Below, in pieces: positions 33,862 to 39,354 of a DNA stretch of 64,000 nucleotides. The position numbers and the translations under genes were made by a program. Origin of the DNA: Escherichia coli (GTDB lineage Bacteria > Pseudomonadota > Gammaproteobacteria > Enterobacterales > Enterobacteriaceae); NCBI RefSeq assembly GCF_003334335.1, contig NZ_QOWQ01000011.1, one strand, 5' to 3'. Numbering within the stretch: the first letter of the stretch is position 1; every line of letters begins with the position of its first letter. The notes beneath the pieces are model-generated. The model was not told the origin of the DNA. It made no database searches and worked only from the letters and a program-made list of their open reading frames with translations.

Positions 33862-34019
33862 GAAAACCCAGTCCTTGCAAAGATGAAGTCGAAATGCGCG
33901 ATGACACACTACTGAAAGCGGAAGGACGAGTAAAGTTGCAATTAAAAGGAAATGTTATGCATAAGGAGCAGTAGAGTATTCGTTTTCATTTAAAGATATT
34001 CTTGCGCTTTAATTACAAA

Positions 34020-34285
34020 CTGCACCGATGTTGGTGGCGTCAAAATCGCCGAGGCGTTCCCTGAAGGCCGGGGCAGCCCACATGGATGTGGGCTGAGGGC
34101 GCGTTTTACAGGGATGTTACCTCGCGCCCGACCCGGTAGCCGTAAGGGATAAGTCGAGGGCACCGCGCAGCGGCGATTTTGTTCGCCAGAGCCCGGGGGT
34201 GCAGGGGGCGGCGGCGATTGGCCGCCCCCTGCGCGCTCCTTGCGCCAGTGGCAATATGTTGCTTAGCTCATGAAAGGAGCGCAAC
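34020..34285. other. GC-rich, hairpin-dense non-coding block between lysO and aqpZ
   Basis: Three near-perfect inverted repeats: CAGCCCACAT-GG-ATGTGGGCTG (34074-34095), GCAGGGGGCGGC-N8-GCCGCCCCCTGC (34201-34232), GCGCTCCTT...AAGGAGCGC (34233-34282); no ORF of 60 aa or more on either strand. Confidence 0.6.
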
Positions 34286-34315
34286 AAGATGATGAATCAA
34301 CATATAACAACATCT

Positions 34316-34346
34316 TAAAAAAAGGCCTGACATTACGCCAGGCCTT
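34316..34346 (-). terminator. Intrinsic terminator of aqpZ
   Basis: 8-bp stem AAGGCCTG/CAGGCCTT hairpin followed on the minus strand by a T7 run, directly after the aqpZ stop. Confidence 0.8.
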
Positions 34347-34355
34347 CTGCGTTAA

Positions 34356-35051
34356 TTAATCACGCTTTTCCAGCAGGGTCCGGTAAATCAGACCACCGAT
34401 AATGCCGCCGACAATTGGCACCACCCAGAAGAACCACAGTTGTTCTAATGCCCAGCCGCCCTGGAAGATAGCAACCGCGGTGCTGCGCGCCGGGTTAACA
34501 GAAGTGTTAGTCACCGGAATACTAATTAAGTGAATCAGGGTTAAGGCCAGACCAATAGCGATCGGCGCAAAACCTGCCGGCGCGAATTTGTCGGTTGCGC
34601 CGTGGATCACCAACAGGAAACCTGCACTCAATACCAGTTCAACTACCAGCGCGGAAAGCATGGAATAACCGCCTGGTGAATGCTCGCCATAACCGTTAGA
34701 AGCAAAACCGCTGGCTGCCGCGTCAAAACCCGTTTTACCACTGGCAATTAAATACAGCAGCGCCGCTGCAACAATACCGCCGACAACCTGGGCAATTACG
34801 TAGCCAACGACTTCTTTTGCCGGAAAACGTCCGCCAGCCCATAAACCAATAGTGACCGCCGGGTTAAAATGACCACCAGAAATATGACCAACAGCAAAGG
34901 CCATCGTCAGAACGGTCAGACCGAACGCCAACGCCACGCCGGCAAAACCAATGCCTAATTCCGGGAAGCCTGCGGCCAGTACAGCACTACCACAGCCACC
35001 AAAAACAAGCCAGAAAGTACCAAAACATTCAGCTGCTAATTTTCTGAACAT
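34356..35051 (-). CDS. aqpZ: Aquaporin Z, 231 aa
   Basis: ATG at 35049-35051 gives [24 protein letters not shown]; NPA motifs present (HFNPAVT, NPARS). Confidence 0.92.
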
Positions 35052-35476
35052 ATCCACCTCAATTAAAAATTGACCCTGTGAAAAATATGGTCGTTTTATA
35101 GGGTCGTCGTAAAAAAGTGACGACGGAAATAATGCGCGGCTATTTTAAAAACGAAGGCGAGTCATTCACCAGATAAATAAATCCAGTAAATTTGATTTAG
35201 GGCAACAGCGGGTTGCCCCATATAGTCATTTGTCTGATTGACAGTGTAGTGCACGCAAAAGATTTAATCCTTTAGGCGTAATAAAAAATAATTTATCATG
35301 CTAATTATTTGATTTTGTTGTTTTTGCAGACTTATCAGCAAGAGGGAGTATAACGCGATTATTCGCTCATTTTTCAGACATTTGCCATGCTTAAATGTGA
35401 TGTCATCACGTATTAGCAAGGCCTTTCCCGTTATACTGCCAGCGTAAAGGATAAGTCACATATTTCTGGAGGGGAT

Positions 35477-37135
35477 ATGATTCTTGAGCGCGTTGAAATT
35501 GTGGGTTTTCGCGGTATCAACCGTTTGTCGTTGATGCTGGAACAAAACAACGTCCTGATTGGGGAGAACGCGTGGGGTAAATCCAGCTTGCTGGACGCCT
35601 TAACTCTGCTGCTATCGCCAGAATCAGATCTCTACCATTTTGAGCGCGACGATTTCTGGTTCCCGCCGGGAGATATCAACGGGCGAGAACATCATCTGCA
35701 TATTATTTTGACCTTCCGCGAATCGCTGCCAGGCCGACATCGGGTTCGCCGTTATCGGCCGCTGGAAGCGTGCTGGACGCCATGCACCGATGGCTATCAC
35801 CGTATTTTTTATCGTCTGGAAGGGGAGAGTGCGGAAGACGGCAGCGTGATGACACTGCGCAGTTTTCTCGATAAAGACGGACATCCGATTGATGTCGAGG
35901 ATATTAACGATCAGGCACGCCATCTGGTGCGTTTAATGCCGGTGCTGCGCTTGCGTGATGCCCGTTTTATGCGCCGTATTCGTAACGGCACGGTGCCAAA
36001 TGTCCCTAATGTGGAAGTCACCGCGCGCCAGCTCGATTTCCTCGCCCGTGAGTTATCCTCACATCCGCAAAATCTCTCTGATGGGCAGATTCGTCAGGGA
36101 CTTTCCGCAATGGTACAGCTGCTTGAGCATTATTTCTCTGAGCAGGGGGCCGGACAGGCGCGATATCGTTTAATGCGGCGGCGAGCCAGCAATGAGCAAC
36201 GAAGCTGGCGCTATCTGGATATCATCAACCGGATGATTGACCGACCTGGTGGGCGCTCGTATCGGGTTATTTTGCTCGGCCTATTTGCTACTTTGTTGCA
36301 GGCAAAAGGCACATTGCGACTGGATAAAGACGCCCGTCCATTGTTGCTGATCGAAGATCCAGAAACCCGTTTACACCCCATTATGCTTTCAGTTGCCTGG
36401 CATCTGTTGAATCTTCTGCCATTGCAGCGCATTGCCACCACCAACTCGGGTGAGTTGCTTTCGTTAACGCCGGTAGAGCATGTTTGCCGACTGGTACGTG
36501 AGTCCTCGCGCGTTGCCGCCTGGCGTCTGGGGCCGAGTGGCTTGAGTACCGAAGATAGCCGACGCATATCCTTTCACATTCGTTTTAACCGTCCGTCATC
36601 GCTGTTTGCACGCTGCTGGTTGCTGGTGGAAGGGGAAACGGAAACCTGGGTTATCAATGAACTGGCGCGTCAGTGCGGACATCATTTTGATGCCGAAGGG
36701 ATCAAGGTCATTGAGTTTGCCCAGTCCGGGCTAAAGCCACTGGTTAAATTTGCCCGCCGAATGGGGATTGAATGGCATGTACTGGTCGATGGCGATGAAG
36801 CAGGGAAGAAATATGCCGCTACGGTACGCAGCCTGTTGAATAACGATCGGGAAGCCGAACGAGAACATTTAACGGCGTTACCGGCGCTGGATATGGAACA
36901 TTTTATGTATCGCCAGGGATTTTCCGATGTGTTCCACCGCATGGCGCAAATCCCGGAAAATGTACCGATGAATCTACGCAAAATTATCTCGAAAGCGATC
37001 CATCGCTCTTCCAAACCCGATCTTGCCATTGAAGTGGCAATGGAGGCAGGACGTCGTGGTGTGGACTCCGTACCGACGCTGCTGAAAAAAATGTTCTCAC
37101 GCGTGCTGTGGCTGGCGCGCGGTCGCGCGGATTAA
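35477..37135 (+). CDS. ybjD: OLD-family-like ATPase with C-terminal TOPRIM-like region, function unknown, 552 aa
   Basis: Walker A GENAWGKSS (about 35561-35584); Walker-B-like LLLIEDPETRLH; C-terminal LLVEGETETW and VLVDGDEAGKKY resemble TOPRIM E and DxD motifs; GGAGGGG RBS before the ATG. Confidence 0.85.
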   Translation: MILERVEIVGFRGINRLSLMLEQNNVLIGENAWGKSSLLDALTLLLSPESDLYHFERDDFWFPPGDINGREHHLHIILTFRESLPGRHRVRRYRPLEACWTPCTDGYHRIFYRLEGESAEDGSVMTLRSFLDKDGHPIDVEDINDQARHLVRLMPVLRLRDARFMRRIRNGTVPNVPNVEVTARQLDFLARELSSHPQNLSDGQIRQGLSAMVQLLEHYFSEQGAGQARYRLMRRRASNEQRSWRYLDIINRMIDRPGGRSYRVILLGLFATLLQAKGTLRLDKDARPLLLIEDPETRLHPIMLSVAWHLLNLLPLQRIATTNSGELLSLTPVEHVCRLVRESSRVAAWRLGPSGLSTEDSRRISFHIRFNRPSSLFARCWLLVEGETETWVINELARQCGHHFDAEGIKVIEFAQSGLKPLVKFARRMGIEWHVLVDGDEAGKKYAATVRSLLNNDREAEREHLTALPALDMEHFMYRQGFSDVFHRMAQIPENVPMNLRKIISKAIHRSSKPDLAIEVAMEAGRRGVDSVPTLLKKMFSRVLWLARGRAD

Positions 37136-38124
37136 CCGCGAAACATCGTGGCCATTTGTGGCTGAATAGCGTCGAGCATCTCATAGCGCCGACGGTATTC
37201 AGCCCGTTTTTTACTGGCGATTTCGGCAATCTCTTTTCGTGCTATCTGTGCTGGAAGGCGGTAATGGCGTTCAGCATCACATACGCCGCCAACCGATTCC
37301 CAGAAAGCGTTGTAATCAGCGTGGATCTTGCCTTCTTTATCGCGATAACGCAGGCTGCGGTAAATATGCGTTTCATTGCTGACGGCAATAATCTGCTCTA
37401 CCTGCAAACGTTGGGCAAACAGACAGGCCGCTTCCATCACGAGGCGTTTGGGAAATAGCCCGTGGCAGGCTTTCGTCGCATTCTGGATTTCCTGATGTGG
37501 AATTTCCCATTTTGCGCCTTGCAGTCCGCCAATAAACATCGTTCTTTTCCCCTGATATTCACACAGGGTAAACGTGATCTCTGCCAGAGGAATACCTTCG
37601 CTGTTGCGGAACAGGATTGTGCTGTCACCTTCTTTATCCATTGAGATCATCATGGTCAGCTCAAGCGTGAACTGCTCGCCGTTTTTGCCTTCCAGCTTCG
37701 CCAGTTGCAGCCCGGGGGTATTCAAATATAAGCTGAATTCTTCCGCCGACATACATTCGCGGAGTAACGCATAATGGTAACGTAACGCCTCCAGCAATTG
37801 CTTACGGCTAAGATTCGCCGCAAGGTAAGGGCGATGCAGACGCACAGGCAGTCGCGGCTGGCGCGTTAACAATACATTGAGATTAGGCCAGTGGGAAAGT
37901 TCGTTCATCCACTCAACGCTTAAACGCGGCATAATCAACGAGCGCAGCAAAAATTTCTGGCGAAAACTACGGCGATGCCAGAATTTACCCGGCCGACACT
38001 GTCCACGTGCCAGACTAAGAAAAAGTGACAGGCTGCTGAGAGATTCAGATGGCGTAAAGGTCCGTTCAGTTAGCTGCGACATATTCATGAAATCAATGGT
38101 TATACATGGCGTCGATTTCACCAT
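37132..38124 (-). CDS. ybjX: VirK/YbjX-family protein (DUF535), 330 aa
   Basis: 330-aa ORF; stop codon overlaps the ybjD stop (TTAA); internal in-frame Met codons at positions 13 and 15 make the start uncertain. Confidence 0.75.
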   Translation of the reverse strand: MVKSTPCITIDFMNMSQLTERTFTPSESLSSLSLFLSLARGQCRPGKFWHRRSFRQKFLLRSLIMPRLSVEWMNELSHWPNLNVLLTRQPRLPVRLHRPYLAANLSRKQLLEALRYHYALLRECMSAEEFSLYLNTPGLQLAKLEGKNGEQFTLELTMMISMDKEGDSTILFRNSEGIPLAEITFTLCEYQGKRTMFIGGLQGAKWEIPHQEIQNATKACHGLFPKRLVMEAACLFAQRLQVEQIIAVSNETHIYRSLRYRDKEGKIHADYNAFWESVGGVCDAERHYRLPAQIARKEIAEIASKKRAEYRRRYEMLDAIQPQMATMFRG

Positions 38125-38238
38125 TGCGTATCTTAACCAAACATCAATAGTGTGATTACTAACGTAAATTTTAGGGTTTTGTTGATATTTCGTTGAAGTT
38201 AATGACCCGGATTGGCATATGGAGTATTCAGAAAATTT

Positions 38239-39354
38239 ATGAAAAAGCGGAAAACCGTGAAGAAGCGTTACGTTATTGCGCTGGTGATAGTCATCGCCGG
38301 ACTGATTACGTTATGGAGAATTCTTAACGCACCCGTGCCGACTTATCAGACGCTGATTGTGCGCCCCGGTGATTTACAGCAAAGCGTGCTGGCGACCGGA
38401 AAGCTGGACGCGCTGCGTAAGGTTGATGTGGGCGCGCAGGTCAGCGGTCAGTTGAAAACTCTGTCGGTGGCGATTGGCGATAAAGTAAAAAAAGACCAGC
38501 TTTTAGGGGTTATTGATCCTGAACAGGCTGAAAACCAGATTAAGGAGGTCGAAGCAACGCTGATGGAGCTACGTGCGCAGCGGCAGCAGGCGGAAGCGGA
38601 GCTGAAACTGGCGCGGGTGACGTATTCCCGTCAGCAACGTCTGGCACAAACGAAGGCTGTTTCACAGCAGGATCTCGACACCGCCGCGACGGAGATGGCT
38701 GTGAAACAGGCGCAAATTGGCACCATTGACGCGCAAATCAAGCGCAATCAGGCTTCTCTCGATACGGCTAAAACCAATCTCGATTACACTCGCATCGTTG
38801 CCCCGATGGCCGGGGAAGTCACGCAAATCACCACTCTGCAAGGCCAGACGGTGATTGCCGCACAACAAGCACCGAACATTCTGACGCTGGCAGATATGAG
38901 CACCATGCTGGTAAAAGCGCAGGTTTCTGAAGCGGATGTAATCCACCTGAAGCCGGGGCAAAAAGCCTGGTTTACGGTGCTTGGCGATCCACTGACGCGC
39001 TACGAGGGGCAAATCAAGGATGTACTACCGACGCCGGAAAAGGTTAACGACGCTATTTTCTATTACGCCCGTTTTGAAGTCCCCAACCCCAATGGTTTGC
39101 TGCGGCTGGATATGACTGCGCAAGTGCATATTCAGCTCACCGATGTGAAAAATGTGCTGACGATCCCTCTGTCGGCGTTAGGCGATCCGGTTGGCGATAA
39201 TCGTTATAAAGTCAAATTGTTGCGTAATGGTGAAACACGCGAGCGTGAAGTGACGATTGGCGCACGTAACGATACCGATGTTGAGATTGTCAAAGGGCTT
39301 GAAGCGGGCGATGAAGTGGTGATTGGTGAGGCCAAACCAGGAGCTGCACAATGA
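38239..39354 (+). CDS. macA: Macrolide efflux periplasmic adaptor (membrane fusion protein) MacA, 371 aa
   Basis: ATG at 38239 gives [21 protein letters not shown]; coiled-coil and beta-barrel adaptor architecture. Confidence 0.9.

Follow-up and report, generated by a model that had tools for sequence, protein, structure and literature searches.

The window analysed here is a 64,000-nucleotide stretch of Escherichia coli DNA (RefSeq assembly GCF_003334335.1, contig NZ_QOWQ01000011.1), and the subject of this report is one gene within it, ybjD, which occupies positions 35477 to 37135 of the plus strand. The open reading frame (ORF) list and its translation give an uninterrupted frame of 552 amino acids with an ATG start and a TAA stop. 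The gene is the chromosomal ybjD of E. coli K-12 (b0876), for which the name oldB has been proposed; the copy in the window is 100% identical to that of K-12 derivatives, and the window as a whole is E. coli K-12-like. A preliminary description, made from the letters alone, had called the product a defence-like ATPase/Toprim protein of the OLD (overcoming lysogenization defect) family, and the frame and the four motifs that it quoted are all present at the sites where it placed them. We are highly confident that YbjD is a Class 1 OLD protein, composed of an ATP-binding cassette (ABC) head and a Toprim nuclease domain, that evolves as a core gene and whose mechanism we infer by analogy with GajA and with the OLD protein of Thermus scotoductus (TsOLD). 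Orthologues below means a set of 83 loci, made up of the best 80 of 501 relatives confirmed in a scan of one genome per species, with Salmonella, Yersinia and Proteus added; the family means an alignment of 55 members that are 28-90% identical. The features of the coding sequence are as follows.

35477..37135, plus strand: ybjD (proposed oldB) coding sequence, 552 amino acids, stop codon included; labelled in RefSeq E. coli as "ybjD: ATP-dependent endonuclease"
35477..36601, plus strand: ABC-type ATPase region (DUF2813, residues 1-375), its N-lobe and C-lobe split by an insert (about residues 61-280) that includes a helical segment
35561..35587, plus strand: Walker A motif or P-loop, GENAWGKSS (residues 29-37, with K35); no variation at G29, G34 or K35 in the 83 orthologues
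36341..36379, plus strand: Walker B motif LLLIEDPE (E293, D294, E296) and D-loop H300, invariant in the orthologues
36437..36460, plus strand: H-loop position, TTNSGELL, where N323 replaces His; N323 is invariant in the 83 orthologues
36602..36796, plus strand: OLD-type Toprim core (residues 376-440, PF20469)
36620..36643, plus strand: Toprim EGETE motif within LLVEGETE (residues 382-389), with E385 for metal A and E389 for metal B
36779..36814, plus strand: Toprim DxD motif (D438 and D440, metal A) within VLVDGDEAGKKY (residues 435-446)
36797..37132, plus strand: C-terminal helical region (residues 441-552), with an invariant K513-P514
36887..36904, plus strand: LDMEHF, whose D472-x-E474 may supply the other half of the metal B site

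Pfam divides the protein into DUF2813 on residues 1-375 (E 3.5e-160) and the OLD-like_TOPRIM domain PF20469 on residues 376-440 (E 7.8e-16), matches well past what chance would give. The P-loop matches to AAA_15, AAA_29, AAA_21, AAA_23 and SMC_N are nested in DUF2813 at residues 1-50, so that the hidden Markov model search proposed in the preliminary description finds the expected AAA_15, AAA_21 and SMC_N signals, with an OLD-type Toprim domain after them. In PADLOC, YbjD matches best to the models of GajA (PDLC00094, E 6.8e-80, 267 bits), with an alignment that extends through residue 549, and Old (PDLC02358, E 1.9e-24). NCBIfam returned short N-terminal P-loop matches only, far below the curated cut-offs, and YbjD is therefore without a curated equivalog in that collection. 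As a single sequence YbjD matches GajA and TsOLD weakly in the PDB; the profile of the family reaches TsOLD (6P74) with an E of 3.6e-20 over residues 2-441 and GajA with 8e-20, and the next matches are PtuA, the OLD protein of retron Eco8 and the heads of SMC, Rad50, RecN and RecF. When the same alignment was compared by hhalign with P2 Old, taken from the P2 genome, the probability was 97.8% (E 8.4e-13) and the catalytic residues were aligned. An AlphaFold2 model built on the family alignment has a mean predicted local distance difference test score (pLDDT) of 84.1 and a predicted template modelling score (pTM) of 0.82, with helices at residues 177-277 between the two ATPase lobes and C-terminal helices at residues 441-548, where pLDDT is mostly >90. 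Foldseek matched this model in the PDB to GajA (E 1.3e-18, template modelling score 0.56-0.58), TsOLD (3.3e-17) and retron Eco8 OLD and then to PtuA and Rad50; the best 21 matches are all GajA, TsOLD or retron Eco8 OLD, with E from 1e-18 to 4e-11. With Pfam, PADLOC, the PDB profile search, hhalign and the AlphaFold2/Foldseek comparison in agreement, the OLD-family assignment is secure at the levels of sequence, profile and fold, and the architecture of P-loop, Walker B and Toprim proposed beforehand stands. YbjD is an OLD protein with an SMC/Rad50/RecF-like ABC ATPase head, a Toprim domain and a helical tail.

The residues predicted to serve the ATPase and the two-metal nuclease are present in YbjD, those for the second half of the metal B site as candidates. 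In the family-wide alignment G29 of the P-loop does not vary, and conservation is at least 90% at G34 and K35. The LLLIEDPE segment (residues 289-296, nucleotides 36341-36364) and the D-loop align with E276 and H283 of TsOLD and with D299 and H306 of P2 Old, while TTNSGELL aligns with the TsOLD segment sTHSp (H310) and with H332 of P2 Old; an Asn at this position has been described as common in Class 1 OLD proteins (PMC7049728). In the Toprim domain, E385 and E389 align with TsOLD E377 and D381 and with P2 Old E398 and E402, and D438 and D440 with TsOLD D431 and D433 and with P2 Old D453 and D455. The EGETE motif is invariant throughout the family alignment. E385 and D440 likewise do not vary in the family, and D438 reaches at least 90% conservation there; none of the three varies among the orthologues. 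Sequence alignments of the C-terminal region to solved Class 2 Toprim structures end at or shortly past the DxD motif. Beyond it, D472 and E474 are invariant both family-wide and in the 83 orthologues, and their order and spacing, rather than a superposition, suggest that they may be the equivalents of TsOLD S478/E480 and P2 Old D541/E543. K513 and P514 are invariant in the same two sets, and K513 is a candidate catalytic lysine.

TsOLD, like YbjD, is a Class 1 protein encoded by a stand-alone gene, with a helical insert in its ABC ATPase and a Toprim domain, and the correspondence runs residue by residue (K34, E276, H283, E377, D381, D431 and D433 in TsOLD for K35, E293, H300, E385, E389, D438 and D440 in YbjD). 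The two share ~17% identity and differ at the H-loop, which has His in TsOLD and Asn in YbjD, and at the C-terminus. There TsOLD has no helical bundle and relies on an arginine (PMC7049728); the C-terminal tail of YbjD is helical, is ~110 residues long and bears the invariant Lys-Pro. The nuclease and ATPase activities of TsOLD have been measured; those of YbjD are predicted from the sequence. P2 Old, the archetype of the family and also Class 1, is likewise a single gene and is homologous to YbjD from Walker B through the Toprim DxD motif; the identity between the two proteins is 18% according to Schiltz 2019 (PMC6755086). P2 Old is carried by a phage, is lethal to recBC cells, excludes lambda and cleaves tRNA, whereas YbjD belongs to the chromosomal core and is non-lethal in a recBC-ts strain.

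When classified by gene context, as Schiltz et al. and subsequent reviews do, YbjD is a Class 1 (stand-alone) OLD protein, because no helicase or reverse transcriptase gene adjoins ybjD, here or in the related loci examined, no Rfam family is found within 34000-39000, and both domains lie in one ORF. No helicase gene lies within 6 kb of ybjD in the 83 loci. None of the four neighbours tested matches a PADLOC defence model, and the gene is flanked by a divergent aqpZ and a convergent ybjX, in keeping with the earlier view of a class-1-like gene that has no partner. GajA, a Class 2 protein, provides both the best PADLOC model and the best structural match to YbjD; Gabija, however, is mobile and patchy and pairs GajA with the GajB helicase, and no GajB/UvrD-like helicase lies beside ybjD or beside any DUF2813 relative examined, so a GajA-type model match is found here outside a Gabija locus. 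At a greater distance (37-44% identity), members of DUF2813 are found in Vibrio, Motilimonas, Tatumella and Chitinilyticum, the last a betaproteobacterium, and those whose context was read (Vibrio, Chitinilyticum and metagenomes) are solitary among housekeeping genes.

The OLD identity of ybjD is correct but was already known. Schiltz et al. used YbjD in 2019 as the seed of their search for OLD homologues and counted E. coli among the Class 1 members (PMC6755086), and a dedicated paper by Atahualpa et al. (May 2026) characterised YbjD and proposed the name oldB (PMC13261556); the statement in the preliminary description that no function had been assigned is thus outdated. Most of the checks that it had proposed have already been done by others, in vitro enzymology excepted. 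The 2026 study detected the ybjD transcript in the wild type by reverse-transcription quantitative PCR (RT-qPCR) and found that the Keio deletion strain is viable, with unchanged phage susceptibility in plaque assays. When arabinose-induced YbjD was challenged with all 68 BASEL phages, plaquing of Bas18 and Bas20 was reduced and the plaques of Bas64-68 were smaller. This anti-phage effect was unchanged by mutation of the Toprim acidic residues or by deletion of residues 378-552, was abolished by deletion of the ATPase region, and was retained by a K35A variant, which was more toxic; YbjD, unlike P2 Old, was not lethal to a recBC-ts strain (PMC13261556). The published anti-phage effects are narrow and appear only on induced expression. 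What the present analysis adds is the evolutionary account.

That account begins with distribution. A ybjD match covering at least 80% of the gene is present in 5425 of the 5426 complete E. coli genomes at 95-100% identity, which confirms the earlier claim that the gene belongs to the core genome. Outside the species, protein identity is 89-91% in Citrobacter and Salmonella, 86% in Klebsiella, 64% in Yersinia and Serratia and 56% in Proteus, and the best 80 of the 501 relatives are all from Enterobacterales. Recovery from residue 1 succeeded for 82 orthologues, and every one of them is intact, with a length of 550-557 amino acids, an ATG start and catalytic residues that are all invariant.

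In the window, lysO and aqpZ (both on the minus strand) lie upstream, with aqpZ divergent from ybjD; the convergent ybjX, on the minus strand, follows, and macA-macB lie beyond. A tblastn search of the 83 loci with the E. coli neighbours found hcp in 71, lysO in 69, macA in 70 and macB in 80, although about 10 of the 80 macB matches (30-43% identity, opposite strand) resemble paralogous ABC ATPases; aqpZ was found in 56 loci and ybjX in 58. The order hcp-lysO-ybjD-macAB holds across Enterobacteriaceae, Yersiniaceae, Hafniaceae, Pectobacteriaceae and Morganellaceae; Yersinia has it complete (poxB-hcr-hcp-lysO-ybjD-ybjX-macAB-cspD-clpSA), Proteus has lysO-ybjD-macAB, and Pectobacterium and Brenneria keep hcp-lysO-ybjD without macAB. 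The position of ybjD is thus fixed while its immediate neighbours come and go. Pairwise distances between YbjD proteins rise in step with those of lysO, macA, macB and hcp (r = 0.91-0.94), with a slope of ~1 for lysO, macA and macB. We conclude that ybjD has been passed on vertically across Enterobacterales while keeping a single chromosomal position.

A search of 50,697 phage records by tblastn matched only a 2-kb fragment, and ybjD is absent from phage genomes. The family phrog_4747 ("unknown function") does match YbjD residues 233-538 (36173-37090) with an E of 4.6e-116; we did not count this as a sign of phage carriage, as the tblastn search of phage genomes gave no real homologue, and the family probably includes genes of the host that were caught up in predicted prophages. 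The high-identity "plasmid" matches that were inspected, together with the largest of those listed, are chromosome-sized records or carry the chromosomal neighbourhood of ybjD, and they look like mis-filed chromosomal DNA. Among the chromosome-sized PLSDB records with ybjD, evidently chromosomes filed in error, are NZ_OL790696.1 (4.80 Mb), NZ_CP141089.1 (4.94 Mb), NZ_OL790812.1 (Proteus, 4.09 Mb) and CP125156.1 (Klebsiella, 5.37 Mb), and smaller E. coli records in the plasmid collection (42-88 kb) also have ybjX beside ybjD. Core-gene matches in this plasmid collection need checking.

Selection on the gene is strong. Between E. coli and Salmonella the ratio of non-synonymous to synonymous substitution rates (dN/dS) of ybjD is 0.039 at a synonymous rate (dS) of 1.68, compared with 0.043 for lysO, 0.048 for macB, 0.059 for macA, 0.026 for hcp and 0.15 for ybjX, and two divergent E. 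coli strains differ in ybjD by 59 synonymous and 3 non-synonymous changes. Within the protein the constraint is uneven: mean identity to E. coli over the orthologues is 0.95 in the Toprim core, 0.80 in the ATPase region and 0.74 in the insert at residues 61-280. At residues 376-450, E. coli and Salmonella differ by 35 synonymous changes and by 0 amino acids, and 18 of the 22 family-invariant columns fall within residues 362-514, among them E385, G386, E387, E389, D440, D472, E474 and K513-P514. Purifying selection on ybjD is strong, and it is strongest on the Toprim core. The guanine-cytosine (GC) content of the gene, 0.531 against 0.518 for the window, is native.

These values bear directly on the notion that ybjD is what remains of an ancient defence gene, now decaying and with no current function. 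A deletion strain with no reported phenotype and an IS1 insertion in E. coli NCM3722 are what such a relic might present, but the 82 full-length orthologues are intact with invariant catalytic residues, dN/dS is 0.04 at saturated dS, and the 59 to 3 excess of synonymous differences holds even within E. coli. We regard decay as refuted by the strength of purifying selection and consider this explanation scarcely credible. In NCM3722, a K-12 derivative (NZ_CP011495.1, 3001-5436), an IS1A element splits ybjD into two annotated pseudogene fragments, so that a widely used physiology strain is a natural ybjD knockout.

The same evidence can be set against the idea that ybjD is a dedicated single-gene anti-phage system, one that, like P2 Old or the OLD protein of Vibrio cholerae (Vc OLD), senses infection and uses its nuclease to kill the phage or the cell. 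The characterised bacterial members of the OLD family are defence proteins (PMC10568477), and induced YbjD does lower plaquing of Bas18 and Bas20 and shrink the plaques of Bas64-68 (PMC13261556). At native levels, however, the knockout leaves phage susceptibility unaltered, and the overexpression effect is narrow, survives both deletion of the whole Toprim domain and K35A, and is not triggered by loss of RecBC. Vc OLD is also a bacterial, single-gene, RecBCD-independent Class 1 protein, in its case a nickase (PMC12392090); it protects against ICP1-3 and needs its ATP-binding residues to do so, whereas YbjD acts only when induced and keeps its effect in K35A. Nor does the evolution of ybjD resemble that of mobile defence genes, which are recognised by patchiness, by a defence-island or mobile context and by fast or horizontal evolution: ybjD is universal, syntenic, vertical and slowly evolving, is absent from phage genomes and lies outside any defence island. 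A passage of Patel and Seed (PMC12392090) states that DefenseFinder finds Class 1 OLD proteins in only 0.45% of genomes, which suggests that the ubiquitous enterobacterial ybjD is not counted among them. Because the native knockout has no phage phenotype and the gene bears no evolutionary hallmark of defence, we consider a dedicated defence role rather unlikely. The earlier wording "defence-like" thus holds for the OLD family to which YbjD belongs but not for the evolution of ybjD itself. The gene behaves as part of the core and is passed on vertically, a housekeeping-like pattern that is not typical of defence genes.

The features that lie outside the coding sequence, or at its very end, bear on how ybjD is expressed and on its relation to ybjX.

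35432..35437, plus strand: TATACT, a candidate -10 hexamer (candidate promoter only) ~40 nucleotides 5' of the ATG
35468..35472, plus strand: Shine-Dalgarno sequence GGAGG, 4 nucleotides 5' of the ATG and kept across genera
37132..37135, no strand assigned: TTAA, a 4-nucleotide overlap of the stop codons of ybjD (plus strand) and ybjX (minus strand), also found in Salmonella and Citrobacter

The intergenic region between aqpZ and ybjD is otherwise unconserved, and the sole conserved block in it is (C/T)TATACT, present in 14 of the 16 aligned Enterobacteriaceae genera. Most genera have the form CTATACT, which is favoured by sigma-S promoters. A consensus promoter scan called no sigma-70 promoter 5' of ybjD; the candidate hexamer was missed because it has no good -35 element. 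We also looked in this intergenic region for a LexA-like CTG-N10-CAG box and did not find one.

We lean towards a constitutive role of YbjD in genome maintenance or nucleic-acid surveillance, with defence as a possible facet, over that of a classical mobile defence gene, because the evolutionary pattern says that the Toprim nuclease serves a conserved, species-wide job. The most explicit form of such a role would make YbjD a housekeeping nucleic-acid enzyme and the bacterial counterpart of Cran1, the Class 5 OLD protein of Sulfolobales: an ATP-regulated Toprim nickase for chromosome maintenance, repair or topology, or else an RNA-processing enzyme acting like the Toprim RNase M5 or cleaving tRNA like P2 Old; the anti-phage activity of YbjD would be a side-effect of overexpression. 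We give this explicit form somewhat less than an even chance. Cran1 was itself singled out for order-wide vertical inheritance; like YbjD, it is conserved across its order and inherited vertically, and it shows no defence phenotype (PMC12796447). What revealed Cran1 was conservation throughout its clade and a gene tree in step with that of the species; the matching signature of ybjD consists of synteny in the 83 loci, a correlation of ~0.93 with its neighbours, a dN/dS of 0.04 and a Toprim active site that is the most constrained part of the protein. Further in its favour, the ATPase head resembles those of SMC, Rad50, RecN and RecF, the conserved -10-like element suggests steady expression, and the transcript is seen in the wild type by RT-qPCR. 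The likeness has its limits, as Cran1 is archaeal, essential and cell-cycle regulated, with nickase and ATPase activities that have been measured, whereas YbjD is dispensable in the laboratory and its activities are predicted. The Keio deletion has no reported growth defect, the literature searched reports no DNA-repair or RNA-processing phenotype, and the missing LexA-like box also speaks against a housekeeping function of this kind.

As to mechanism, analogy with TsOLD, GajA and work on the Burkholderia pseudomallei OLD protein suggests that YbjD would oligomerise through its helical insert and that nucleotide binding at the ABC head would keep it restrained. Once released, the Toprim site would nick or cleave nucleic acid by two-metal catalysis. 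A restrained state is consistent with the greater toxicity reported for K35A, which matches the behaviour of GajA, an enzyme restrained by ATP binding.

Several points weigh against this account. Both enzymatic activities of YbjD are predictions, and the published phenotypes, which need induced expression and are independent of the Toprim domain, are therefore silent on the proposed nuclease mechanism. The replacement of His by Asn at the H-loop, together with an ABC signature that is degenerate as in other OLD proteins, makes ATP hydrolysis, though not binding, uncertain. Confidence in the model is lowest in the helical insert (pLDDT <50 at residues 162-176 and 222-244), and the oligomeric state of YbjD is presumed from its relatives. 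Finally, a knockout that is viable with no reported defect implies that any housekeeping role is non-essential or redundant in laboratory conditions.

Purifying selection and phenotype are also mismatched. The Toprim core is the most constrained part of YbjD and is dispensable for the overexpression phenotype, so the domain that the phenotype does not need is the one that selection guards most; its active site, invariant down to 28% identity, is not required for the only phenotype reported. This mismatch makes ybjD a tractable case, in a model organism, for non-defence roles of bacterial OLD proteins, a kind of role that has recently been shown for one archaeal member. We propose, as a conjecture that extends beyond E. 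coli and that we rate below an even chance, that YbjD/OldB and the wider proteobacterial DUF2813 clade may not be primarily phage-defence proteins but vertically inherited housekeeping nucleases, analogues of Cran1 with self DNA or RNA as target, and that their anti-phage effects may be a by-product of overexpression. The gene for this predicted nuclease is non-essential and yet is kept in the core of a whole order with its nuclease site frozen.

We also asked whether ybjD could form a two-gene functional unit with the convergent ybjX (VirK/DUF535), since the stop codons of the two genes overlap by 4 nucleotides in E. coli, Salmonella and Citrobacter and the pair is on a list of convergent excludons (PMC12288877). 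However, ybjX is missing at 25 of the 83 loci with ybjD intact, for example in Klebsiella, Raoultella, Pectobacterium and Proteus. It is also less constrained (57% identity to Salmonella against 90% for ybjD, dN/dS 0.15 against 0.04), the two genes face each other, and ybjX has no PADLOC match. We rejected the partnership on the 25 absences and the fast evolution of ybjX and hold it to be very improbable. The gene ybjX (37132-38124 of the window, minus strand) evolves much faster than all its neighbours. Induction of ybjD has been reported by unstranded RNA sequencing, for example with cathelicidin peptides, and could in principle represent read-through from ybjX. On the other side of ybjD, aqpZ (34356-35057, minus strand) separates ybjD from lysO in E. 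coli, Citrobacter, Klebsiella and Enterobacter; the locus is without it in Salmonella, Yersinia, Serratia, Pectobacterium, Proteus and a number of further genera.

Within the coding sequence, the terminator-like matches returned by the promoter and terminator scan were judged not credible, and three minus-strand ORFs (99, 118 and 115 amino acids), which have no supporting evidence, were treated as spurious. A repeat search in and around ybjD found only one 20-nucleotide direct repeat of 80% identity, with copies at 35867-35886 (CTCGATAAAGACGGACATCC) and 36320-36339 (CTGGATAAAGACGCCCGTCC); both encode L-D-K-D, and the repeat is probably due to chance.

Among the relatives are three giant proteins, P0292 (1481 amino acids; metagenome scaffold L089, 5001-9446), P0150 (1867 amino acids) and P0165 (1437 amino acids), in which DUF2813 and the OLD Toprim core, at 36-39% identity to YbjD, are broken by two very large insertions. 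The first comes after the P-loop lobe and has ~320-580 residues, a length that differs between the proteins, and the second, of ~400-1,050 residues, immediately precedes the last C-terminal helices and is rich in E, K, R, Q, L and A in P0292.

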